Virus record (IMG/VR): IMGVR_UViG_3300027573_000964
From: a virus
DNA: 64,000 nt
Direction: 5' to 3' (one strand)
Shown: piece after piece, positions 15,604-59,625 of the stretch
Layout: every line of letters begins with the position of its first letter
How positions within the stretch are numbered: the stretch's first letter is position 1
Position numbers and translations under genes: made by a program
Notes under the pieces: generated by a model
Database searches by the model: none
Seen by the model: the letters and a program-made list of their open reading frames with translations, nothing else
What the model was told of the DNA's origin: nothing

Positions 15604-16037
15604 TAATATTTGAACCATCCAACTAAATCACTTTTAATCTTTTTATAGTCTATTTCTTTTCTGCTTATTTTGGAACGAGCGTAATAAAAATCTCTATAAA
15701 ATTTATTTTCTGGCACTCGTGAATCTTTTTCATTACCAGGCATATCGTATCTATTTATATTACCGCAGCATAATTCGTATAAGCTTTGCCAGTATTCTTC
15801 GTGTTCAATTTGTGCTTGGCTTATTTTATATACACCGAATACTCTGTGTGTATATTTTTTATTTTCTATAAAGTAATCTTCATCATCAATGTAGAAGAAC
15901 CAATACTTTTGCCCAAGCCATTCGCACATACCATCTAATTCACCGTCATACCAGCCATCATACCAAAGCATTTTAAAGTCGATATTATTAGTTAGATTAG
16001 GGACATTTGCTAATAACTGTTTTGTTTCTTCGTGCAT
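15603..16037 (-). CDS. hypothetical protein
   Basis: 144 aa ORF; TAG stop abuts tRNA-Glu. Confidence 0.5.
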   Translation of the reverse strand: MHEETKQLLANVPNLTNNIDFKMLWYDGWYDGELDGMCEWLGQKYWFFYIDDEDYFIENKKYTHRVFGVYKISQAQIEHEEYWQSLYELCCGNINRYDMPGNEKDSRVPENKFYRDFYYARSKISRKEIDYKKIKSDLVGWFKY

Positions 16038-16258
16038 TCTTGTTCGTATAACCTTTGTCGTTCTTCTGGGCTTTTGTTCATCAGGTCAGTTATTTCAAAT
16101 CCGGCTCTGTGAAGCGCTATAATTATGTTATGTTCATTTAAATGGTTTTCACAAATATTCACTTCTAATCCAGTGGCTAATAGGCCACGGGAAAAAAGCA
16201 AGTCTCTTGTTATTTTACCACCACAGGGCGTTCCTAACACCCAAGAACAATCATTCAT
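16010..16258 (-). CDS. small conserved protein, paralog family A, copy 2
   Basis: 82 aa; CSWVLGTPCGGK...NICENHLNEH. Confidence 0.6.
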   Translation of the reverse strand: MNDCSWVLGTPCGGKITRDLLFSRGLLATGLEVNICENHLNEHNIIIALHRAGFEITDLMNKSPEERQRLYEQECTKKQNSY

Positions 16259-18284: not shown

Positions 18285-18371
18285 TGGCGGAAGCAGAGAG
18301 ACTCGAACTCCCAAGCGCTTTTAGACGCCGCCTGCTTTCAAGGCAGGTTCCTCATCCAGCCGGATTACTTC
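18285..18371 (-). tRNA. tRNA-Ser(UGA), type II (long variable arm)
   Basis: 87 nt; acceptor GGAAGTA/TGCTTCC, anticodon arm CCTGC-CTTGAAA-GCAGG, long variable arm, T-loop TTCGAGT, CCA encoded. Confidence 0.75.
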
Positions 18372-18569
18372 CAATTCTTTCTCTGTAAGCCACCCATGTT
18401 CGTATATATTGTAGAAGTGTCTTTGGGCGGAAATATAATCTTTTGACATACTATTGCTTATAACTACTTGTGCAAATACTCCGCCAGTATTCTTACTTAC
18501 TACTAACTCGCGTATCTTCCAATCAAGACCTAAATGCATTATGTATGTTTCATATACGGTTCTATTCAT
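18321..18569 (-). CDS. hypothetical protein (3' end runs ~50 nt into tRNA-Ser gene)
   Basis: 82 aa ORF. Confidence 0.4.
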   Translation of the reverse strand: MNRTVYETYIMHLGLDWKIRELVVSKNTGGVFAQVVISNSMSKDYISAQRHFYNIYEHGWLTEKELEVIRLDEEPALKAGGV

Positions 18570-20697: not shown

Positions 20698-20773
20698 TGG
20701 TGGGTCCTGTGGGAGTCGAACCCACGACCGTCAGATTAAAAGTCTGCTACTCTACCAGCTGAGTTAAAGACCC
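20698..20773 (-). tRNA. tRNA-Lys(UUU)
   Basis: RC GGGTCTTTAACTCAGCTGGTAGAGTA-GCAGA-CTTTTAA-TCTGA...GGTTCGACTCC...CCACCA. Confidence 0.85.
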
Positions 20774-22078: not shown

Positions 22079-22165
22079 TGGCGCACGAGGAATGGGTTCG
22101 AACCATCGGCCTCTCAATAGACTTTTACCTCTATCGAGCACTCTACCGGCTGAGCTACATCGTGC
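22079..22165 (-). tRNA. atypical tRNA-like gene (87 nt): canonical acceptor/D/T arms but 9-bp anticodon stem with 8-nt loop GGUAAAAG
   Basis: RC GCACGATG-TA-GCTC-AGCCGGTA-GAGT-G-CTCGATAGA-GGTAAAAG-TCTATTGAG-AGGCC-GATGG-TTCGAAC-CCATT-CCTCGTGC-G-CCA; sequence confirmed against overlapping ORF translations. Confidence 0.5.
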
Positions 22166-26536: not shown

Positions 26537-26806
26537 TCATTCTTTTTTAGAATCTTTTTCACTGGCTGCTTTAAGAAATGTATTTAGGTCTTCGCCTTTT
26601 AACAAATCTGCCAGCATCTTATTTCTTTCTTCCGCTGTAGCATCATTAACTTCGACTTGCTTTATGCCTCTTTCCAACAAAGAAATAACCACTAGGTGTT
26701 CATTGTAGTGTCTATCGCATATTGGGACTTTTAGTTGAGCACTAAACATTAGCCGTTCGCTTGCACTTCCTGCGCAAGTGGTGCCCATATTCCATACACA
26801 ATTCAT
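26537..26806 (-). CDS. small conserved protein, paralog family A, copy 3
   Basis: 89 aa; CVWNMGTTCAGS...VPICDRHYNEH. Confidence 0.6.
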   Translation of the reverse strand: MNCVWNMGTTCAGSASERLMFSAQLKVPICDRHYNEHLVVISLLERGIKQVEVNDATAEERNKMLADLLKGEDLNTFLKAASEKDSKKE

Positions 26807-29220: not shown

Positions 29221-29586
29221 CTATCTCAACTTGCTCGTACTTTCTTGCCGCTTCTCTTCGGCCCACGCTTCTATGTCAAATGGAGTACCGTCTTTTTTAT
29301 GTAATGGCTCTATCTTAAATATTTGAGAACTGTTATGAGTTACCCAACAGGACTTGCCATTAACACTACCGAGTCTGGTTACATTAAATACAGCCATAAA
29401 TCTTTTAAGAAAATCTACATCGACCGAATAGCCTAATCCTTGCACGCCCCAAGTATCGTACTCAAACGAACCCAATAGAACAGAAAATCCATGGTCTTCT
29501 ATTCCAAAGTCAAAACCAGAACATTTTGCTAACGAACGCTCTCTATCACTCATAGTTTCTCCTAAATCGTAAGACCGATACCCCAT
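29221..29586 (-). CDS. hypothetical protein
   Basis: 121 aa ORF. Confidence 0.5.
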   Translation of the reverse strand: MGYRSYDLGETMSDRERSLAKCSGFDFGIEDHGFSVLLGSFEYDTWGVQGLGYSVDVDFLKRFMAVFNVTRLGSVNGKSCWVTHNSSQIFKIEPLHKKDGTPFDIEAWAEEKRQESTSKLR

Positions 29587-31006: not shown

Positions 31007-31358
31007 ATACCTGCTTTATCAAAATACCTGTGTGCTTTTCAACTACAAATATATTGTACCAAGTGTCTTTATCGAAATTATCCGGCATTCCATGAACCCA
31101 GTAGCGCCCATACGAACGAACTGTATGGTCTATACTAACCAAGCCGCCCCAGACTGTATTGCCATCTGGGTCTATTATTGTAAGCCAATCTCCAGTTTCA
31201 AGAATATTAAGACCACCATAGTCCCATGCCTTATCTACTCCATGGGACTTTTGCCATTCACTTGGCTCGATCATATATTCAAAATCTTGTAGCGCCCAAT
31301 ATACGCCTTCGGTTCCAGTTTCCCAAAAGGCATGAAGTACGCCCTTTATTTGTTTCAT
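30972..31358 (-). CDS. hypothetical protein
   Basis: 128 aa ORF. Confidence 0.5.
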   Translation of the reverse strand: MKQIKGVLHAFWETGTEGVYWALQDFEYMIEPSEWQKSHGVDKAWDYGGLNILETGDWLTIIDPDGNTVWGGLVSIDHTVRSYGRYWVHGMPDNFDKDTWYNIFVVEKHTGILIKQVYENGLSHTRKE

Positions 31359-31633
31359 TAGACTGTTGGACCAGCAGAATCTATCTCAGCCGTTTCTTTA
31401 ATTGCCGCGTCTATATCAGTAGTTAGAGTAGATAGAAGATTAAGTCTTTCGTCAGACGAAAAAGCTAAAAGATCCTCTATCTCTTTATTGAACTTACGGT
31501 TCAAAGTAAGTAAAACGAGATGTTCCCTGTAATGAGAGGCACACACCGGAACTGATATTTGATTACCAAACATACCTCTGCCGCTCACCTCTCCATCACA
31601 TGGAGAGCCTATATTCCAAACACATACGCTCAT
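31358..31633 (-). CDS. small conserved protein, paralog family A, copy 4
   Basis: 91 aa; CVWNIGSPCDGE...VPVCASHYREH. Confidence 0.6.
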   Translation of the reverse strand: MSVCVWNIGSPCDGEVSGRGMFGNQISVPVCASHYREHLVLLTLNRKFNKEIEDLLAFSSDERLNLLSTLTTDIDAAIKETAEIDSAGPTV

Positions 31634-33114: not shown

Positions 33115-33573
33115 TCATAATTGATAGCATATCAGTGCCCTTGGGTCTAATAATTCGTCTGGCTTATTTTCGTTAAGACGCCACCAGACTGTTTTAGTGG
33201 TTCCGTGTTTATATAGCTCAAGATGAAGCATTGAAGTCGGGCGGCCCTTATCTTGCTTCAGAACTCGTTTAACTTTTCCAATCAACTCGCCAGCTTTAAT
33301 TACTTGCCCATACTTAACAAGAGGCTCGACTTCACCATACGCAACAACACCGGAATAGCTTTCAATTAGTATTGATTTGGTATCATTCCACCAAGGAGAC
33401 CCTGCTTTTTCGCCGGTAAAGTCTTCTATTGAAATAACTATGCCGTCTTCAATGGCGAATACTTCCGAACTTTCATCGCAATACAAATCTATTCCAGTAT
33501 GAATATCATACTTACGAACAGCACCAAACTGTCCATGTTCATCTGGCCATTGAAACTGCTTGAGCGGAAGCAT
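33115..33573 (-). CDS. peptidase M23 (LytM-domain) metallopeptidase
   Basis: 152 aa; HTGIDLY (HxxxD) and SMLHLELYKHG (HxH) motifs. Confidence 0.65.
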   Translation of the reverse strand: MLPLKQFQWPDEHGQFGAVRKYDIHTGIDLYCDESSEVFAIEDGIVISIEDFTGEKAGSPWWNDTKSILIESYSGVVAYGEVEPLVKYGQVIKAGELIGKVKRVLKQDKGRPTSMLHLELYKHGTTKTVWWRLNENKPDELLDPRALICYQL

Positions 33574-39244: not shown

Positions 39245-39874
39245 CTAATTGTCAAACCAAAATACAAGTCGCGGCTCTGCACCGAAAGTTCGTAATCCAC
39301 GCATAGCACCAATGACAGCTTCAAGGTTTCTATGCGGCTCTATTCTTAAATGCTTAATGCTAGCTTCATACATGGACTTCCACTTAGGATCGTCTAATAC
39401 TTTCTTTTCTAATTCAAATATCTCTGAGTAGGCATATTTGGATGAAGCTTTAATATAAGCCTTTTGAACTTGTTCAAGCTCTTCTAGCGTTAGCCAGGAT
39501 GGTGTATGGGCATCTGGATCAGTAACACAGGTTTTTGCTTCATCTGCCCATTCACTTGACCCGCTCTTTACCCAACTCTCGGCACTTTCTCTAGTACAAC
39601 TGCGATTATCGCCATCAGAATCATCTTCTTCCTCGCCGTCTGCCTTGACGTTCAAACAGTAATCCCATCTGACATTCCAAGACACTTCATTTAAGTTTGG
39701 CATACCACGGGGTTGGAAAAGAGCATTAGTGGGCTCACCGCGAACTCCGGCCATAAGATTGAATAGTAGGTAGTCTCTGCCTATTCTAACATTACCAAAG
39801 CATTCTACATATGGCTTTTCTCTCTGCTCGGATGTATGTACTACTTCGATATACGAATGAATATCACAGCCCAT
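39245..39874 (-). CDS. hypothetical protein
   Basis: 209 aa ORF. Confidence 0.55.
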   Translation of the reverse strand: MGCDIHSYIEVVHTSEQREKPYVECFGNVRIGRDYLLFNLMAGVRGEPTNALFQPRGMPNLNEVSWNVRWDYCLNVKADGEEEDDSDGDNRSCTRESAESWVKSGSSEWADEAKTCVTDPDAHTPSWLTLEELEQVQKAYIKASSKYAYSEIFELEKKVLDDPKWKSMYEASIKHLRIEPHRNLEAVIGAMRGLRTFGAEPRLVFWFDN

Positions 39875-43151: not shown

Positions 43152-43230
43152 TGGTGGGCAGGGATGGATTTGAACCACCGACCCTCGGGCCAAAAACGCC
43201 CGATGCTCTAACAGGCTGAGCTACCTGCCC
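43152..43230 (-). tRNA. tRNA with anticodon loop GUUUUUG (UUU, Lys-like) and 6-bp anticodon stem; atypical
   Basis: RC GGGCAGGTAGCTCAGCCTGTTAGAGC-A-TCGGGC-GTTTTTG-GCCCGA-GGGTC-GGTGGTTCAAATCCATC-CCTGCCC-A-CCA. Confidence 0.6.
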
Positions 43231-43797: not shown

Positions 43798-43872
43798 TGG
43801 CGCCCCGAGGAGGAATCGAACCCCCGACGCACCGATTTAGAGTCAGCCGCTCTGCCGCTGAGCTACCGGGGC
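43798..43872 (-). tRNA. tRNA with anticodon CUA (amber/UAG-reading suppressor-type tRNA; Lys-like anticodon arm)
   Basis: RC GCCCCGG-TA-GCTC-AGCGGCA-GAGC-G-GCTGA-CTCTAAA-TCGGT-GCGTC-GGGGG-TTCGATT-CCTCC-TCGGGGC-G-CCA; U33, anticodon C34-U35-A36, A37. Confidence 0.75.
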
Positions 43873-44090
43873 AAGTGTTCTGGTGAATAACATCTCTTGT
43901 CTGCGTGTAGAACTATTTGTCCATCAGACAATCTATATATAAACTCTTGAAGAGGTATTCTGGATTCAACATATGTGTTGCCCATAGATATTCCCCATCC
44001 CTGTCTATTATAATCAACAGCTGATAATTTATTAAATGGCCATTTCTCTATAAAAAATTCCATATACAATTTGAGAACAATGTCATTCAT
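43863..44090 (-). CDS. hypothetical protein
   Basis: 75 aa ORF. Confidence 0.4.
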   Translation of the reverse strand: MNDIVLKLYMEFFIEKWPFNKLSAVDYNRQGWGISMGNTYVESRIPLQEFIYRLSDGQIVLHADKRCYSPEHLPR

Positions 44091-44365
44091 CTTATAGCGA
44101 ACCAGTATTCATTCATTTCTTTTAGAAACTTTTTACTTATAGTATAGTCGCTATCACTACCAATAACAGAATCAATACCGCACTTAGGGCATAGTGCGGT
44201 ATCTCCTGCGTCTATCCATTCTTTAATCTCACTGAACTTAAAATGGTTGCAGCAATAAAAACACCCTATAACTGCACTATTTTTTAGCTCTTCTTTATGA
44301 TTGGAAGAATGTTCATGAGCCTGTATTATCTTCTCTTGGTTCGCCAAGTTCAACCTCTGGTTCAT
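44087..44365 (-). CDS. hypothetical zinc-binding protein
   Basis: 92 aa; CFYCCNH...CPKCG. Confidence 0.4.
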   Translation of the reverse strand: MNQRLNLANQEKIIQAHEHSSNHKEELKNSAVIGCFYCCNHFKFSEIKEWIDAGDTALCPKCGIDSVIGSDSDYTISKKFLKEMNEYWFAIR

Positions 44366-45440
44366 TTAAACCAATCATTTCTTCCAATGATTTAATTTGC
44401 ATATCAGCTACATAACGCTTAAAGTCAGGCGTCTTGCCGTATTTCATTTGAAACATAGCATCGGAAAATGATTGCGTAGTGGCCATCTTTGCGAAGTCCT
44501 TGCGCTCTTCTATGTGCTTAATGCCATCATAGAAGCCTTCCATTCTACCCAACAACCGCTCATACTTATAACGAATGTTATTATATTCATCGGTAAATTC
44601 AGGATAGTAAGAAAGGAATTCGCTTCCTTCGTTGGTACGAACTAGCTCTAACAACTTGCGCCTGCTCATCCCAACACTGTCTCGTAAGTGAGATACAGCA
44701 ACGTATTGAGGAGACTTTACTTTAACGCGGTTGTAGTTGGAATCACAAACAACATAGCCTTCGCATTCCATGGGTTCAAGCGTTTTAGCAGCTTCAACTA
44801 TTTCATCCCAAGAAGTTAGAGGGAATATTTTTACACATTCCCAGCCGTAGTGGTGAGCTTCTATTACAGGATTTAATTCTTTGAAGTCGGACAAACGACG
44901 AGCACCATGCAATACTATACGATCTTCTAAGTGACGAACCACTACACGATTCTTGGCAGTCATCATCTCGAACATATAGCAAACATTAGTATCGGTAGGA
45001 AGTTTGTATCCTAACTTTTTCCAAACTTGCCAGAACAACTGAGAGAAAGTTATATCATAACCATTCACTTCACCAGCCGCATCGGGCAATCCAGAAGAAG
45101 AAACTTGCCAAGCGCCGTCATAAAAATACAACGTCATTAGCGAGCCATCTAATTTTTCATATACGCGCGCAGAAGACCAATCTATATCGTCAGCGTGTCC
45201 TTCGCCATAGTTAAAAAACTTGGAATAAGGAAATGAAACAACCTTCCAGCCTTGCGCCTCATCGAGTATTAAACCACGGCATTGCTGAACAACTTTAACA
45301 CCCATAGGAGAGTTAATTTGGTCATACTTCAATAACACAAGGTTATTATACTTACCGTGACGCTTCGCAGCTATCTCAAACTTGTCGCATAACTTATCAA
45401 GTCCGTGCGCCTTTATATAATCTACTACCTCTAAGTTCAT
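44313..45440 (-). CDS. rnlA: RNA ligase 1 (T4 RnlA/gp63-like)
   Basis: 375 aa; QCRGLIL...KFFNYGE...VYEKLDGSLMTLYFYDGAW aligns to T4 Rnl1 ECRGIMF...KFFNLNE...ILTKEDGSLVSTYLDGDE; EGYVVCDSNYNRVKVKS vs EGYVAVMKDGSHFKIKS. Confidence 0.85.
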   Translation of the reverse strand: MNLEVVDYIKAHGLDKLCDKFEIAAKRHGKYNNLVLLKYDQINSPMGVKVVQQCRGLILDEAQGWKVVSFPYSKFFNYGEGHADDIDWSSARVYEKLDGSLMTLYFYDGAWQVSSSGLPDAAGEVNGYDITFSQLFWQVWKKLGYKLPTDTNVCYMFEMMTAKNRVVVRHLEDRIVLHGARRLSDFKELNPVIEAHHYGWECVKIFPLTSWDEIVEAAKTLEPMECEGYVVCDSNYNRVKVKSPQYVAVSHLRDSVGMSRRKLLELVRTNEGSEFLSYYPEFTDEYNNIRYKYERLLGRMEGFYDGIKHIEERKDFAKMATTQSFSDAMFQMKYGKTPDFKRYVADMQIKSLEEMIGLNEPEVELGEPREDNTGS

Positions 45441-51248: not shown

Positions 51249-52091
51249 CTATTTCGTCCTCCGTTTAAAACTCTTAACATAGTTCTCTGCGTCTTTTTCA
51301 GCTGCTTTTGAGTGTTCTAATTGAAACTCAATCAACCTCTTGCGTATTTTATTGCTTTCATAATCATTACAATCTGTTAGTTCTTTAATTCTATCATCAG
51401 ATACTAATGGCTGCAATGCCTGAATGGCCTTTGGGTTCATATCTAGTATCAATTGTATCATACTCATATGATATGTAAAATCGAAACTGTCAAATATGTT
51501 CCTATCCTTGCCAGAGGCATCGGCCATACTAACCAATATAGCATACTTCCAGTCGTCACCAAGATGTCTAATGAACTTACCTATGGTCTTGCGCGAAGAC
51601 GGACACTTCTCGTTAGTAGGAACATAGCTAGGATTAACCATCCTAGCACCGTCAATGAGCAGCTTCACTCTGTTAATTTCTCTTTCAGTTACATCAGAGA
51701 AACTCTTTAGAATATACTCAGCTGCCTTCAAACTATACTCTTCGTGACCAATATAAGTGGTTCTAGTCCTACCACCAACAGTTTTCTTGCCATGAACTTT
51801 GGTATTTAGCTTACCCAAATCATGGAATAAGATAGCACAATTCATAGCGAAACGGTCTTGGCTGCTAGTGTCTGGAAAGTATTTAGAATAGATTTTTTGT
51901 AGATTGCCAAGTGCCTCAAGTGAATGCTCAAACACATTCAGCTTGTGCCAAGGCGTATTCTGATCCATCTCCCAAGCCAAATAGCCTTCTGGAAACTTGA
52001 ATATATTATACAGTTGATTCTGTTCTTTGAGTGCCAATACGCTACTAACTGGGTCCTGGCTGGTCATAAGAGTTCTAATAGTCTCGGTCAT
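51249..52091 (-). CDS. HD-domain phosphohydrolase
   Basis: 280 aa; WHKLNVFEHSLE ... AILFHDLGK (HD motif, CCA-enzyme-HD-like). Confidence 0.6.
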   Translation of the reverse strand: MTETIRTLMTSQDPVSSVLALKEQNQLYNIFKFPEGYLAWEMDQNTPWHKLNVFEHSLEALGNLQKIYSKYFPDTSSQDRFAMNCAILFHDLGKLNTKVHGKKTVGGRTRTTYIGHEEYSLKAAEYILKSFSDVTEREINRVKLLIDGARMVNPSYVPTNEKCPSSRKTIGKFIRHLGDDWKYAILVSMADASGKDRNIFDSFDFTYHMSMIQLILDMNPKAIQALQPLVSDDRIKELTDCNDYESNKIRKRLIEFQLEHSKAAEKDAENYVKSFKRRTK

Positions 52092-53736: not shown

Positions 53737-54419
53737 TACATATCCATAAAAGAACGACGAGGTAAAATAGGCCCTGTCGGTAGGATGCCCTTGGGATTAG
53801 TCGTATATCCCTCGAACCATGGCGCCGTAGATGGCATTGATAGTCTAACAAACTGTCTGCTTACCGGCTTATATTGGGGTATAGATTCATGAACACATAG
53901 ACCACCCATCCAATAAGCAACATTGGCTTTGAGTTCTATTGGCTCTTTAAGCTGAGGTCGCAAATGTTCGCAGTCACCTTCATCACCGGGAAAGCCAACG
54001 AAGTCTTGGTTCCATGCTCTACAGCCAACGTGACTGGCTATTGAAATCATTCCACTTTCAACAGAACCCCAACCACCGCCGCCACCCCATGATCCTGGAT
54101 TAGTAGTGCCGCCCCAAGAACCACCTCCACCCCACGAGCCGGCTGATAGTTTAGGTCCGATGCCATCTACATGTAAGCCAGCTCGTCTATGCGTGCGACC
54201 ATCGGCAACAATCTTTTCGTCTATAGTTAAATAAGCTACGCCAGTCTTACACGGCGCAACTTTGCACAGAGCGTCATAGGCTTCACGCCAATGTGACAGG
54301 TCATCCGGTAGAGAGTCCAAGTCAGACAACAATACGGGCAACATCATAACTCTTGTGTCGGTGAAGGCGGGTAGTTGAATAGAGCCCTCTTCTCTAATAG
54401 GACTATTGAACATTTGCAT
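53736..54419 (-). CDS. hypothetical protein with SWGGGG repeats
   Basis: 227 aa; SAGSWGGGGSWGGTTNPGSWGGGGGWGS. Confidence 0.5.
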   Translation of the reverse strand: MQMFNSPIREEGSIQLPAFTDTRVMMLPVLLSDLDSLPDDLSHWREAYDALCKVAPCKTGVAYLTIDEKIVADGRTHRRAGLHVDGIGPKLSAGSWGGGGSWGGTTNPGSWGGGGGWGSVESGMISIASHVGCRAWNQDFVGFPGDEGDCEHLRPQLKEPIELKANVAYWMGGLCVHESIPQYKPVSRQFVRLSMPSTAPWFEGYTTNPKGILPTGPILPRRSFMDM

Positions 54420-55050
54420 TTAGCTTCACCAACAACGAATCGCCCTTCTCGATAATCTTTACGCCTTTTTCTTTCATTTCTGCTACGGCCTTAGCACCAT
54501 CTTCTGGTTGAAGGTTAACAGCTCTACAACCGTCTAGCACTAAATTAGTCTTGAAACCCAAGCTAACAGCATCTAATGCGGTAAATTTCACGCAGTAGTC
54601 AGTAGCTAGGCCGAGTACGAACAACTCAGTAGCACCAACATCTCGTAAATAACCAGCGAGCCCAGTTGGATGCTTACGTCCGTTGTCAAAGAAACCACTG
54701 TAGCTATCTACTTCTGGATCCATTCCTTTACGGAATATAGCAGCAAGCCTACCGCCCAACAAGTTTTTGTGGAACTCTGCGCCTTTGCTGCCCCATGTAC
54801 AATGCTCTGGCCACCACACTTGAGGTAATCCATTGAGTGTGCCTAATGTACCAACCTTAACATCTTTGTTATTAGAAGCAAAGCTCTTGTGCGTCGGAGG
54901 ATGATAGTCTTGAGTTGCTACTATCAAATCAAACTTACCCTCAACTATGAGACGGTTAGCTACGGGAACAACGGCATCACCATCTTTGACAGCCAATGCC
55001 CCGCCATTACAGAAATCGTTTTGTATATCTACGAGTACTAATGTCTTCAT
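54403..55050 (-). CDS. pncA: nicotinamidase / pyrazinamidase (isochorismatase family)
   Basis: 215 aa; LVLVDIQNDF (Asp), K, LGLATDYCV (Cys) catalytic triad context. Confidence 0.8.
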   Translation of the reverse strand: MKTLVLVDIQNDFCNGGALAVKDGDAVVPVANRLIVEGKFDLIVATQDYHPPTHKSFASNNKDVKVGTLGTLNGLPQVWWPEHCTWGSKGAEFHKNLLGGRLAAIFRKGMDPEVDSYSGFFDNGRKHPTGLAGYLRDVGATELFVLGLATDYCVKFTALDAVSLGFKTNLVLDGCRAVNLQPEDGAKAVAEMKEKGVKIIEKGDSLLVKLNANVQ

Positions 55051-55062
55051 CTTGCTTCTCCA

Positions 55063-55272
55063 TTATTCGTGTTCCAATCCCCATTTAGAATTGTTCCACA
55101 ATCTTTCATAAATATAATATGTTACGAACGCTATAGTTGTTCCCGCTATTGATATACGCAGAGATAAAGTCATATCTCCGGTAAAGGCGTATGATATTAT
55201 TGTTCCTCTTGCAAAGGCAATAACTCTCCATATTGTTGCTTTTAATAGTGTTCTCTTAATAGTCTCTTTCAT
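55063..55272 (-). CDS. small membrane protein
   Basis: 69 aa; two hydrophobic segments. Confidence 0.4.
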   Translation of the reverse strand: MKETIKRTLLKATIWRVIAFARGTIISYAFTGDMTLSLRISIAGTTIAFVTYYIYERLWNNSKWGLEHE

Positions 55273-57256
55273 TATTTACTATGGAGGGCCTATCCCACTC
55301 TCCACTCACCAGGCTTTTCAATTCTATTAATTCTTGTTCAAATCCACTTGATATAATAGGAAATCTGCACCAAGTTTTTGGATCCAAGTTCTCATCGTCT
55401 AAGTGGAAAGATGGCGCGTATCGCTCGCGCTTCCACTGGTTTCTGCACCACAACTTAAAGAATTTTTCTATCCAAGCACCAAGCTGAACCTTATCGTACA
55501 AGCCCTGCATAAGCAAAAATATTTCTGTAGGAGAGCGCTTATCTCTTATTGCGTGTTTCTCTAATTGATCTAATACACCGTAGGGCATTAAATCATCTTC
55601 ATCTCTTTGATTCTTTTCTGTAGGTCTAAGTTCAGCGGTAGGCTCTTGATTATTTACATACGATAAGGCTGGGATAGTAGTTTCTATCTGTCTCAACCAC
55701 ATACGCAAATAATTTTTATCAATACCAGCTATGGGACTTAATCCACCGCAAGTATCTCCGTCCATAGTAGCATAACCTACGGCAGCCTCTGAACGATTGC
55801 TTGTAGCCAATAGGATAGCATTCTTAATGTTGGCAAGCATCCATATTGAAGGGCCGCGAACTCTTGCTTGAATATTCTGTAGCGTTACGTCGTCTTGTTC
55901 CCAAGTAAGTTTGCGGCCGATAGATTTTTCAATCATACCAGTATATAAACTTACAGCTGCTGATATATCCAAATTATGGAACTCTGCACCAAGAGATTCT
56001 GCCACTCTTAAAGCGGCGGTATAAGTAGTGTCCGAACTGTTCTTTGAGCCTTGATATGCGCAAGTTAAGAGTTTGTTAGATATTTCTTTTAAAGCGCTCA
56101 GGTCTTGGATAGAAGATATATAAGCCAGCTTCTTTTTAAAAGCATTCAGACCTATATTATTAATAGCATCCTTGACCATTAAATACACCAGGCTAGATAC
56201 AGCTGATGAATCTGCGCCGCCACTTAAACTTACTACATAGCCATTTGATTTGGCTTTACGCATAAAGTCAAACAGCCCAAGTGATACTGCTTTCTGAAAC
56301 TCTTCGTGCTTCTTGTAAGTTCTATCTGTTCCAGATAAAAATTCTGGAACATGAAACTTCGGATTGAATGAACCACCATTTATGCATAACTCATCGTCTT
56401 CCACATTAGGAACAAAGCTGGCGGTTCTGGAACGGCTTGTGTTATTAGAATGAACATCTACAACAGCGCTGGTGACAAGAAAGTCTTCATAAGAAAATCT
56501 CTCTCCTGAACTTACTATATTGCCATTGGTGGCTATGATAGTATCACCATCATATATAACACGACCAGATTCATTGCCTAATAGATTGGCGTACACATAT
56601 ACGCAATTAAAAGCTCTGGAGCCTTCAACTACGAACCCTTTGCGTATCTCATGCTTGCCAAATGCAAAATGGCTAGCACTAGGATTTAGAATTATATCTA
56701 CACCCCGTGAAGCAAGTTGTCTGCCAGGCCTATCATATACCCAGGCATCTTCACAAATCTCAAATCCAACCTTGATAGGATTAGCATTCCCTAAAGAAAA
56801 ATATATATCACCTATGGGATACTGCCTACAATTAAAATTCAGAGTAGATTTTATTCCTTTGGGCCACGCCTTAAACCAACGAGGTTCATAGTGAATACCG
56901 TCGCCAGCAAGATATTTCTTAGCAACGAAGCCGAGTATCTGCCCGCTGTTAATCATACATGCTACATTAAAAATAGCACCGTTCAACTCAACTGGAAGAC
57001 CAACTGACACCGCCATACCTGTACTGGTGGTATGCTGTGCGATATTTAACAGACACTCACCTGCGCGACGAAGGACATCTTTAGAATGAAACATATCCTC
57101 GCAGCCGTATCCAGTAATGCAAAGCTCTGGCAAACATAACAGTTCTACACCAGTTTCTTTTGCGGACTTTATAGCTTGGATAATATTATTAGTATTGTGC
57201 TCCCAAGCCATAGGCGTTTGATTTAACGCCACAGCTGCTACTTTAATGCCCTTCAT
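55256..57256 (-). CDS. nadE: glutamine-dependent NAD+ synthetase (N-terminal nitrilase/CN-hydrolase domain + NAD synthase domain)
   Basis: 666 aa; LCLPELCITGYGCED, FEICEDAW (nitrilase E-K-C); VVSLSGGADSSAV PP-loop. Confidence 0.85.
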   Translation of the reverse strand: MKGIKVAAVALNQTPMAWEHNTNNIIQAIKSAKETGVELLCLPELCITGYGCEDMFHSKDVLRRAGECLLNIAQHTTSTGMAVSVGLPVELNGAIFNVACMINSGQILGFVAKKYLAGDGIHYEPRWFKAWPKGIKSTLNFNCRQYPIGDIYFSLGNANPIKVGFEICEDAWVYDRPGRQLASRGVDIILNPSASHFAFGKHEIRKGFVVEGSRAFNCVYVYANLLGNESGRVIYDGDTIIATNGNIVSSGERFSYEDFLVTSAVVDVHSNNTSRSRTASFVPNVEDDELCINGGSFNPKFHVPEFLSGTDRTYKKHEEFQKAVSLGLFDFMRKAKSNGYVVSLSGGADSSAVSSLVYLMVKDAINNIGLNAFKKKLAYISSIQDLSALKEISNKLLTCAYQGSKNSSDTTYTAALRVAESLGAEFHNLDISAAVSLYTGMIEKSIGRKLTWEQDDVTLQNIQARVRGPSIWMLANIKNAILLATSNRSEAAVGYATMDGDTCGGLSPIAGIDKNYLRMWLRQIETTIPALSYVNNQEPTAELRPTEKNQRDEDDLMPYGVLDQLEKHAIRDKRSPTEIFLLMQGLYDKVQLGAWIEKFFKLWCRNQWKRERYAPSFHLDDENLDPKTWCRFPIISSGFEQELIELKSLVSGEWDRPSIVNNERDY

Positions 57257-57267
57257 TCACTTTCCTA

Positions 57268-58176
57268 TTAAGCAGTTTCTTTGGCTACCGCTTGAGCTAA
57301 TAGACGTTTAACATCAGTGACACCGCCCGGAGTGTGGTCCAAGAATACCGTATTGGTCTTGGACGCAGCAGCGATGTCCTTTAGGGTATCAAAGTATTGA
57401 GTCATTAATACCAGGCTCATAACGTCAGCGGCTGTACTACCTGGAATGCTCTTCTGAAATTCATCAACAGAGGTGCGCAAGCCATCTACAATTGCCTTGC
57501 GTTGGTCAGCGATACCTTGTCCTTGGAGCTTCTTTGAGATAGCTTCGGCTTCAGCTTGCTTAACCTTGAGAGTCTTTTCGGCCTCACCCTTCTCTTCAGC
57601 AGCTTGTCTATCACGCTGTGCAGCGTTGATAGCGTTCATTGAATCCTTGACGTGCTTGTCTGGGTCGATGTCGGTCACTAGAGCCTTAACGATAGAATAG
57701 CCGAAGTCATCCATAACCTCGGACAGCTCCTTTTTAACAGCGTTAGCAACATCGTCCTTACGCTCGAATACTTGGTCAAGAGTTAGCTTTGGAATCTCTG
57801 CACGTACTAGGTCGAATACATATGAAGTAATCTGTTGCTTTGGATTATTCAACTTATAGTAAGCATCAACAACCTTCTCTGGAAGTACGTTGTATTGAAC
57901 AGATACTTTAGTATTAACGAAGACGTTATCCTTGGTCTTGGTTTCAACTTCTACATCTAACTGCAAGATACGCAGCGGCATTATGCTGACTACTGAATCT
58001 ATAAGAGGAAATTTTAAATTAAGTCCAGCGCTAGCTAACTTCTTATACTTACCAAAGCGTTCTACTACGGCTACAGTTTGCTGGCTGACAGTGAAGAAAG
58101 TTCCAAACATAAATATTAGCCCGACGATGGCCGCGACTATTCCGCCGGCGACCATTAGAATTGTATTGAGTTCCAT
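57268..58176 (-). CDS. SPFH/band-7 (prohibitin/HflC-like) membrane protein
   Basis: 302 aa; N-terminal TM, SPFH core, coiled-coil C-terminus. Confidence 0.75.
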   Translation of the reverse strand: MELNTILMVAGGIVAAIVGLIFMFGTFFTVSQQTVAVVERFGKYKKLASAGLNLKFPLIDSVVSIMPLRILQLDVEVETKTKDNVFVNTKVSVQYNVLPEKVVDAYYKLNNPKQQITSYVFDLVRAEIPKLTLDQVFERKDDVANAVKKELSEVMDDFGYSIVKALVTDIDPDKHVKDSMNAINAAQRDRQAAEEKGEAEKTLKVKQAEAEAISKKLQGQGIADQRKAIVDGLRTSVDEFQKSIPGSTAADVMSLVLMTQYFDTLKDIAAASKTNTVFLDHTPGGVTDVKRLLAQAVAKETA

Positions 58177-58185
58177 TTTATTTCC

Positions 58186-59625
58186 TTATTTACGCGCTAG
58201 TATTAGCTCGTTTCTTAATTTGTTTAATTCCTTATCTAAATAAACATTTGGACGCCTGAAGATGTTTTGGTCTATGTTTATAGATTTTGCTCTGCTAAAG
58301 TTAATATCTGGGGAAGTATATATTAAATTGCCTCTTACATATATTGGCGCAAGTAATTTGTATTCTGTATATGGTAGCGCTGAAAATCTTTGTTCAAAAT
58401 TGTCATCATCTTGGTCAGCGTCCAATGCTACAAGTTCTCCAGAAAATCCAAGCTCTGTATCATATATAACATCTCTAACTGAAGAGTCAGTTTGATTAGT
58501 TCGTCTCAATACTTGTTGAGCACCAGGAATTGAAGTCTTGATTAAACTGTCAGATAGTTTTATCTTTGGCACACTTTTGCCGGTGGAGTCTTCTAATACA
58601 GCCAACTTATAAACCCCGCCCAGAGCAGGTTGGTCATAAGATGTAATGAGCTTTGTTCCGACTCCCCATGCGTTTATCTTGGCACCATCAGCTTTTAATT
58701 TAGCTATCTGGTCTTCATCCAAATCATTGCTAGCCACAATAATAGTATTCTTAAAGTCGGCGGCATCTAACATTTGCCTGGCTATTTTGCTTAACTCACA
58801 TAAGTTTCCAGAGTCCAAGCGAATGCCATGTAGGTTATGTCCCAACTTACGAAGAGTTTTGCCAGCTTCTATAGCGGACATTACACCACCCACAGTGCCG
58901 TAAGTATCAACTAGCAAAGTTGCATTGTTAGGCATTGCTTCTACATACTTAGTCATAGCTTCTAGTTCTGAATCAAAGCTCATAATCCAAGAATGTGCAT
59001 GAGTTCCCTTGACTGGTATATTGAATAATTTACCAGCTAAGACATTCGAGGTTCCAGAACAACCACCCACATAAGCAGCGCGCGAAGCAGTTAGCGCTCC
59101 ATCGAATCCCTGCGCTCTACGCAAACCAAAATCAAATACCACGTCACCTTTAGCTGTCTTATAAGTTCTGTAAGCCTTTGTGGCGATAAGCGTATTAAAA
59201 TTAATGAGATTGAGTAGCGGGCTTTCTAATAGCTGACATTGGTCTAACGACCCAGTTATACTTAACAGTGGTTCGTGAGCATAGACAGCAGTACCTTCTT
59301 CAATAGCATTTACATCACAAGTGAATTTAAGCCCACCCAAATAATCTATAAACTCTTTGCTAAATAGAGGGCAACCATCATTACCAGTCAGGGTAGAAAG
59401 AAATTCACAATCGCTAGTATCAAACCACTTGCCCTTTAAAGTTTCTATAAACTCAATAGCAGGTTGTAGCCCACATGCTACAGCGAAACCATTATTAAAT
59501 GGAGCCTTGCGAAAGAACAAGTTGAAGGTCGCACGACGACTACTCATACCGTGTTTCCAATAACCATAGGCCATCGTAAGTTGGTATAAGTCTGTCATTA
59601 ACCCCAAAGAGGTGTTATATATCAT
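58186..59625 (-). CDS. pncB: nicotinate phosphoribosyltransferase (NAPRT-type)
   Basis: 479 aa; MTDLYQLTMAYGYWKHG..., GLRRAQGFDGALTASRAAYVGG...SNVLAGKLFNIPVKGTHAHSWIMSF closely parallels NAPRT LLTDLYQATMALGYW / GLRRAQGPDGGLTAS / SNVLAG...GT(L/H)AHS. Confidence 0.85.
   Translation of the reverse strand: MIYNTSLGLMTDLYQLTMAYGYWKHGMSSRRATFNLFFRKAPFNNGFAVACGLQPAIEFIETLKGKWFDTSDCEFLSTLTGNDGCPLFSKEFIDYLGGLKFTCDVNAIEEGTAVYAHEPLLSITGSLDQCQLLESPLLNLINFNTLIATKAYRTYKTAKGDVVFDFGLRRAQGFDGALTASRAAYVGGCSGTSNVLAGKLFNIPVKGTHAHSWIMSFDSELEAMTKYVEAMPNNATLLVDTYGTVGGVMSAIEAGKTLRKLGHNLHGIRLDSGNLCELSKIARQMLDAADFKNTIIVASNDLDEDQIAKLKADGAKINAWGVGTKLITSYDQPALGGVYKLAVLEDSTGKSVPKIKLSDSLIKTSIPGAQQVLRRTNQTDSSVRDVIYDTELGFSGELVALDADQDDDNFEQRFSALPYTEYKLLAPIYVRGNLIYTSPDINFSRAKSINIDQNIFRRPNVYLDKELNKLRNELILARK

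Follow-up and report, generated by a model that had tools for sequence, protein, structure and literature searches.

A tRNA gene whose anticodon is the complement of UAG raises the question of its role in a phage that also ends genes with TAG. Phage suppressor tRNAs are usually read as a flag of stop-codon recoding. The gene, here called tRNA-CUA, lies on the minus strand at positions 43798-43872 of the 64,000-nt stretch of viral DNA that was analyzed (the window). It is probably a functional and selectively maintained amber-suppressor-type tRNA, which belongs to a set of at least 22 tRNAs in a phage with a genome of about 468 kb and standard-code usage in the part of the genome that was sampled.

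ARAGORN was run on the window and predicts a 75-nt tRNA at this place with the anticodon cta (tRNA position 33; 43838-43840 on the minus strand, TAG on the plus strand), which confirms the anticodon proposed in an earlier note on this DNA. The Rfam tRNA model RF00005 matches the gene with 55.2 bits (gathering score 29; E=3.7e-9 for the whole window), and the alignment covers model positions 1-71 of 71 as a full-length cloverleaf. The sequence is GCCCCGG UA GCUC AGCGGCA GAGC G GCUGA CUCUAAA UCGGU GCGUC GGGGG UUCGAUU CCUCC UCGGGGC G CCA. The stems are 7, 4, 5 and 5 bp long, with two G-U pairs in the anticodon stem and one each in the acceptor and T stems. The anticodon loop has 7 nt (C-U-C-U-A-A-A) with U33 and a purine at position 37, and a shift of the anticodon stem by one position, tried by hand, gave no pairing. 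Both the sequence and the CM alignment show that U8, A14, G18G19, U33, A37, U54-U55-C56 and A58 are retained, and the 3' end consists of a discriminator G73 and an encoded CCA. The earlier note had described a canonical 75-nt cloverleaf with a CUA anticodon, a discriminator G and an encoded CCA, and this description stands with two corrections: the strand is minus, and the acceptor stem, called a perfect 7 bp, is made of six Watson-Crick pairs and a G7-U66 wobble. The single-sequence MFE fold of the gene is not a cloverleaf (z = -0.25), which is normal for tRNAs; this result was overridden because the CM and the covariation among relatives both give the cloverleaf. A weak plus-strand match to Plastid-ycf2, whose 34 bits fall short of the gathering score of 65.7, was rejected as the antisense of the tRNA.

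ARAGORN labels the gene 'Pyl' because of the anticodon alone. A tRNA-Pyl has a 6-bp anticodon stem, a 3-nt variable loop, a small D loop without G18G19 and no T-Psi-C, and is accompanied by pylS and pylBCD. The 5-bp anticodon stem, 5-nt variable loop, G18G19 and UUCGA of tRNA-CUA led to the rejection of this identity. None of the Pyl genes is among the Pfam matches of the roughly 83 kb around the gene.

The window is part of a 468,446-bp contig (ena:ERZ27267619:k141_116371), as found by exact-protein look-ups; a position in that record equals the window position plus 279,926. The same phage is present in JGI sample 3300009678 as two contigs (Ga0105252_10000010 and Ga0105252_10000020; 287,923 and 170,947 bp) and in Logan run SRR5468912, which makes three independent datasets in all. 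The JGI copy of tRNA-CUA is identical. Since the coordinates of the JGI contigs wrap around the ENA record, the sequence suggests a complete genome that is circular or circularly permuted. A JGI contig breaks at about 43,943, and the Logan contigs stop at about 44,108 and resume at about 43,606, so tRNA-CUA is unassembled there. These breaks, all less than 300 nt from the gene, may be a plain assembly effect or may stem from variation in the phage population at this place.

A megablast search of INPHARED with a 4-kb stretch around tRNA-CUA gave no match, and a search of IMG/VR gave none to the protein sequence of the RNA ligase Rnl1 or to a near-exact tRNA-CUA. NadE, the DNA ligase, a DUF2201 protein and Rnl1 reach at best 24-35% protein identity in INPHARED (tblastn). 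Judged by these comparisons, the phage is only distantly related to every INPHARED record. Homologues 51-53% identical to the Rnl1-type ligase are annotated in filamentous cyanobacteria (Kamptonema, Microcoleus). One related phage contig is filed under a 'Promethearchaeota' MAG and another under 'Patescibacteria', and binning errors are the probable cause.

The roughly 83 kb around tRNA-CUA is an auxiliary region of tRNA, RNA repair and NAD salvage genes, in agreement with the early/metabolic region seen in the earlier note. It encodes three RNA ligases, including a T4 Rnl1-type and an Rnl2-like enzyme, together with RlaP, Thg1, two peptidyl-tRNA hydrolases, and IF1-like and S21-like proteins. 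The 18 tRNA genes that ARAGORN predicts in the window are all minus-strand, and two matches found only by Rfam bring the count to about 20 tRNA-like genes. Both of these were missed by ARAGORN. One (22083-22164, minus strand, 40.7 bits) combines a 9-bp helix in the anticodon arm with an 8-nt loop, GGUAAAAG; the other (18288-18372, minus strand, 29.9 bits) has a long arm and the anticodon UGA (Ser). All tRNAs of this phage encode CCA. A 280-aa ORF at 51249-52091 (minus strand) matches only aa 238-515 of a 507-aa PolyA_pol/CCA-adding-type protein in a related contig (L035:1949-3472), and the nucleotidyltransferase head of that protein has no counterpart in this phage. The split of this gene relative to L035 was considered as a TAG interruption and rejected; the two ORFs do not share a frame, and nothing matches the N-terminal half.

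The phage also has a complete Preiss-Handler NAD salvage set at 54403-59625 (minus strand) plus L003:6585-7163. On the minus strand of the window it consists of a PncA-like isochorismatase (54403-55050), NadE (55256-57256) and NAPRTase (58186-59625), and a NadD-like CTP_transf_like gene lies just beyond the window edge. Pfam matches to NADAR, Acb5 and Gad2 are found near these genes. Second copies of the isochorismatase and CTP_transf_like genes occur at about 395 kb of the record, in a piece (L118, record 389,609-409,977) with 47% GC compared with 38-39% in the window. Coding density seems lower in this piece, which is rich in very small genes and adds two tRNAs, Tyr(GUA) and Lys(CUU). Jumbo phages have previously been reported to synthesize NAD (PMC11662467).

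A family of five small proteins (82-122 aa) with the invariant pattern C..W..G..C...C..H...H, which has the look of a zinc finger, is encoded at 368-622, 16010-16258, 26537-26806 and 31358-31633 on the minus strand of the window and at L118:10001-10369. Its database relatives number only 11, and each comes from this phage or a near strain. No dispersed repeats of at least 14 nt were found, and the HNH query found no paralogues.

The immediate neighbours of tRNA-CUA are also on the minus strand. Directly upstream is a 75-aa ORF (43863-44090), present in the ORF lists and called as a gene in the ENA record, which overlaps the tRNA by 10 nt such that its TAG stop is U8-A9-G10 of the tRNA. A sigma-70-like hexamer pair (minus strand, 44035-44007) lies inside this ORF and is a consensus match only. 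The T4 Rnl1-type RNA ligase (44313-45440, Pfam PF09511) ends 440 nt upstream of the tRNA and serves as its syntenic anchor; the gene order is Rnl2-like, Rnl1, two small ORFs and tRNA-CUA. Among the scattered tRNAs, a tRNA-Lys(UUU) found by ARAGORN and Rfam at 43152-43230 (minus strand) has an atypical anticodon arm, which can be drawn with a 6-bp stem and the loop G-U-UUU-U-G or with a 9-nt loop, and has U at position 37. The other tRNA-Lys(UUU), at 20698-20773, has the normal loop CUUUUAA. The atypical gene could be a variant that escapes anticodon nucleases.

The gene is conserved in relatives. The contig L035 (Logan SRR16915462), with a Rnl1 that is 70% identical and extensive gene order in common with the window, repeats the order given above and carries a tRNA-CUA (L035:11772-11847) at the syntenic place, after Rnl1 and two small ORFs. 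The two tRNAs share the acceptor GCCCYGG, G73, CCA and the loop CUCUAAA. Their stems differ at pairs 5-68 (C-G to U-A) and 50-64 (G-C to U-A), where both sides have changed, and three further pairs are G-C in one tRNA and G-U in the other. With a pattern scan, the same type of tRNA (acceptor GCCCYGG, G73 and CUCUAAA) was found at L243:7994-8066, in a 532,729-bp IMG/VR contig of 54% GC. There the anticodon-stem pair 28-42 changes from C-G to U-A on both sides, and the G-U wobbles 27-43 and 29-41 become G-C and U-A. G73 CUA tRNAs were found at two more Rnl1-linked loci, and a broader pattern scan gave 21 IMG/VR contigs, many of them 290-607 kb long, that have CUA tRNAs of the same D arm and loop. 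RNAalifold recovered the cloverleaf from nine G73-class phage CUA tRNAs with double changes in 16 of the 21 pairs; six of the nine came from the D-arm and loop pattern, and those parts are conserved by construction. Since the stems of the orthologues differ through compensatory changes, the comparison argues that the gene is kept by selection. Retention is patchy: the contigs L037, L241 and L242, with a Rnl1 64-82% identical, have no CUA tRNA within 3-10 kb either side of Rnl1, and a CUA tRNA lies within a few kb of Rnl1 at 4 of the roughly 86 Rnl1 loci examined.

Four other huge phages (350-608 kb) have tRNA-CUA genes in tandem pairs, always one with A73 and one with G73 (L019:4091-4256, L027:320-478, L030:12747-12903 and L243:7920-8067). 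One of the two tRNAs in the L019 pair has a long variable arm. The pairing suggests two differently charged amber suppressors per genome.

The origin of tRNA-CUA is less clear than its conservation. The earlier note had compared the loop and stem to tRNA-Lys(CUU) with U36 changed to A. The phage has a tRNA-Lys(CUU), outside of the window at L118:12855-12930, and this gene and both tRNA-Lys(UUU) genes have A73 and acceptor stems unrelated to that of tRNA-CUA. The Lys tRNAs are identical to it at 49-50 of 75 positions, compared with 56 of 75 for the phage tRNA-Thr. In addition, none of 102 cellular tRNAs found in one genome per prokaryotic species, by a pattern of the acceptor 5' strand and D stem, was a tRNA-Lys. 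A tRNA-Lys(CUU) origin thus finds no support. Most of the cellular matches (85 of 102) were Arg(CCU/UCU) genes, although beyond the part fixed by the pattern the Arg excess was modest, with the best Arg(UCU) at 40 of 48 positions and other isotypes at 36-38. The closest over the whole length, at 65 of 75, were Arg(UCU) genes with G73, and a few Thr(CGU/UGU) genes were identical over the first 25-27 nt, D loop included. A blastn search of 50,697 phage records in INPHARED gave 255 matching records, and the best 60 contained sense tRNAs only, of 73-82% identity and of the isotypes Thr, Lys, Arg, Asn, Phe and Val. The comparison with nearest neighbours inside the phage's own tRNA set was uninformative for isotype. 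Taken as a whole, the alignments place the scaffold of tRNA-CUA in the Arg(AGR)/Thr/Lys group of tRNA bodies.

The main determinants of ArgRS are A20 and C35. All matched cellular Arg tRNAs have the D loop GGAYA with A20, whereas tRNA-CUA has GGCA with C20 and has U35 in the anticodon. The identity of an Arg(YCU) acceptor was therefore rejected since tRNA-CUA has neither A20 nor C35, and the scaffold may still be common to both. In E. coli, charging of CUA tRNAs by GlnRS or LysRS is driven by U35, and a G73 is favourable to Gln or Trp identity. Because of U35 and G73, the best guess for the inserted amino acid would be Gln, with Lys and Trp as alternatives. The acceptor pairs G1-C72, C2-G71 and C3-G70 differ from those of E. 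coli tRNA-Gln and speak against Gln. Gln is the amino acid at TAG in code-15 phages (bioRxiv 10.1101/2021.08.26.457843).

These features allow a bolder reading, in which a lineage of huge phages keeps a dedicated G73 tRNA(CUA), built on an Arg(YCU)/Thr-like scaffold without the ArgRS determinants, and UAG has a double meaning that depends on time or on the gene. It points to other huge phages in which the G73 tRNA(CUA) is often in tandem with an A73-class tRNA(CUA). If true, UAG would be a stop in auxiliary genes, and late genes outside the sample or host genes would use it as sense or for regulated read-through. In another form of this reading the suppressor would be a weapon or a counter-defence and no decoding aid. 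A double meaning of UAG is rather unlikely.

The genetic code was read from 103 kb, or 22% of the genome. This sample consists of 82.8 contiguous kb (the window and two 10-kb flanks) plus the 20.4 kb of L118 (record 389.6-410.0 kb), which was reached through P0131, a paralogue of the Cys/His protein family that has four copies in the window. Minus-strand ORFs cover 84.6% of the window in code 11 compared with 82.0% when TAG is read as sense. The corresponding values are 90.5% and 87.7% for the 82.8 kb and 86.9% and 86.2% for L118, so the comparison of the two codes that the earlier note had called for shows no gain with TAG as sense in the 103 kb. The same note had counted at least nine ORFs that end in TAG. 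This was an understatement, since TAG ends 22 of the 109 non-overlapping minus-strand ORFs of at least 70 aa in the window, including all five that were named. Over the 82.8 kb, the 158 stops are 83 TAA, 51 TGA and 24 TAG. TAG terminates 15-20% of the genes in the sample and is not depleted. The median extension by read-through in the window is 6.5 aa for TAG, which is no different from the 6 aa for TAA and 5 aa for TGA.

Comparison with relatives gives the same result. None of the relatives' protein alignments crosses a TAG, and the Rnl2 homologue in L035 stops at the residue where the phage has TAG. Among 176 tblastn HSPs from relatives, those that contain stops are all antisense artefacts with mixed stop types. 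Only two TAG junctions would fuse neighbouring ORFs, at 39245 (TAGGAGTTTAGAATG) and 29221 (TAGATG). Both were rejected as in-frame TAG codons since they are boundaries with a ribosome-binding site and an ATG, and the gene after the junction at 29221 encodes a complete MGS-type protein. No in-frame TAG was found in conserved genes within the 103 kb. The sampled 22% of the genome uses the standard code, and TAG is an ordinary stop there. The TAG recoding suggested in the earlier note finds no support in these 103 kb, where code 11 covers best, TAG is undepleted and in-frame TAG is absent.

Recoding could be limited to late genes. The sampled 103 kb holds no recognisable structural genes, and capsid, terminase, tail and most lysis genes lie outside of it. 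Late structural and lysis genes in the rest of the genome could read TAG as an amino acid, with the suppressor made from the present region, which suits the standard code, and switching the code late in infection. TAG-recoded phages with a tRNA(CUA) are known among Lak, crAss-like and other gut clades (bioRxiv 10.1101/2021.08.26.457843; PMC9523058). Suppressor tRNAs are strongly enriched in such phages and were detected in about 40% of them, and the recoding concentrates in structural and lysis genes (bioRxiv 10.1101/2021.08.26.457843), on which a jumbo-phage survey agrees. An auxiliary region such as the one sampled is also the last place in which to expect recoding. Like the recoded Lak and crAss-like phages, this phage has a canonical tRNA(CUA), a very large genome and, around the tRNA, a region that can be read in the standard code. 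Coding density in those phages rises under code 15, TAG is depleted, and in-frame TAG occurs in structural and lysis genes; this phage differs in that none of these traits is seen in the 103 kb. The undepleted TAG counts against recoding because TAG is scarce both in the recoded phages that have been published and in phages closely related to them (bioRxiv 10.1101/2021.08.26.457843). An M23 peptidase at 33115-33573, which is possibly lysis-related, is intact under code 11. Neither release-factor genes (RF1, RF2) nor aaRS genes are among the precomputed Pfam matches of the 103 kb. In one jumbo-phage survey about 99.5% of the phages used the standard code, and TAG also ends nearby genes in many other phage contigs with CUA tRNAs of this kind. 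Since the sample is 22% of the genome and is without recognisable structural genes, these results only weaken late-gene recoding, which is unlikely.

Another alternative is a function outside of decoding. The tRNA could be a decoy or substitute substrate against host anticodon nucleases or other tRNA-targeting defences, placed beside RNA-repair enzymes. The nearby Rnl1-type ligase would fit such a role, as would the Rnl2-like ligase, RlaP, Thg1 and the two peptidyl-tRNA hydrolases of the region, and the abnormal anticodon arm of the neighbouring tRNA-Lys(UUU) is of a kind proposed to evade nucleases. The association of CUA tRNAs with Rnl1 at the few loci described above also points this way; however, it is a weak link, missing in closer relatives. 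No known nuclease target has the loop CUCUAAA. In addition, the CUA anticodon and this loop are strictly conserved in orthologues and the stems drift, which is what decoding predicts. A decoy role is thus very unlikely. It is also very unlikely that tRNA-CUA has no current function and is drifting neutrally or decaying after the anticodon of a sense tRNA (Arg(YCU), Thr or Lys group) mutated: the 5' half equals cellular tRNA-Arg(CCU/UCU) and some tRNA-Thr, ARAGORN finds no tRNA-Arg in the window and the gene is patchy among relatives, but every tRNA invariant is intact, orthologues at 39% and 54% GC keep CUA and G73 with compensatory stem changes, and any Arg parent would be at least two anticodon substitutions and the loss of A20 away.

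A functional suppressor in a standard-code genome has precedents. The classical amber suppressors of E. coli, supE from tRNA-Gln and su7 from tRNA-Trp, are single-base anticodon mutants of host tRNAs. They resemble tRNA-CUA in the anticodon, in the competition with release factor 1 that is proposed here and in being tolerated despite TAG stops. They differ in that no sense tRNA was found one mutation away from the phage gene; at least two anticodon changes separate it from the nearest cellular bodies, which are Arg(CCU/UCU) and Thr(CGU/UGU). Among phages, Ralstonia phage RsoM2USA uses the standard code and has a tRNA-Sup(CUA), and its authors note that UAG is abundant in the genome (PMC8504454). 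Bacillus phage G combines the standard code with a tRNA-Sup(UUA) (PMC12484599), and sup-tRNAs have been reported in gut jumbo phages (PMC11662467). Like this phage, they have a large tRNA set with one suppressor and a stop codon in normal use, and their suppressors have no demonstrated sequence relationship to tRNA-CUA. A standard-code relative of recoded phages also has a suppressor tRNA (bioRxiv 10.1101/2021.08.26.457843). This phage fits the standard-code jumbo group, where suppressor tRNAs are already known. What it adds is the conservation of a suppressor and genuine TAG termination in one genome.

If tRNA-CUA is a functional suppressor, it would be co-transcribed with the surrounding minus-strand genes. 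CCA addition would be unnecessary because CCA is encoded. Charging would fall to a host aminoacyl-tRNA synthetase that either accepts U35 or uses it for recognition, and the tRNA would then compete with release factor 1 at UAG and cause partial read-through during infection. This read-through would be tolerable, since in genes that end in TAG the next stop would follow after a median of about 6 additional residues. A published evolutionary model may account for the benefit; there the suppressor predates any code change and acts as a buffer against nonsense mutations to UAG. Buffering would be the most economical explanation, as it does not require an existing set of recoded genes.

A tRNA(CUA) gene by itself appears to be insufficient evidence for code 15, because here a conserved suppressor coexists with frequent TAG stops wherever the genome was read. 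Annotation of this genome should use code 11, unless a comparison over the whole contig differs. The phage provides a documented example for the question of what role suppressor tRNAs may have in standard-code jumbo phages.
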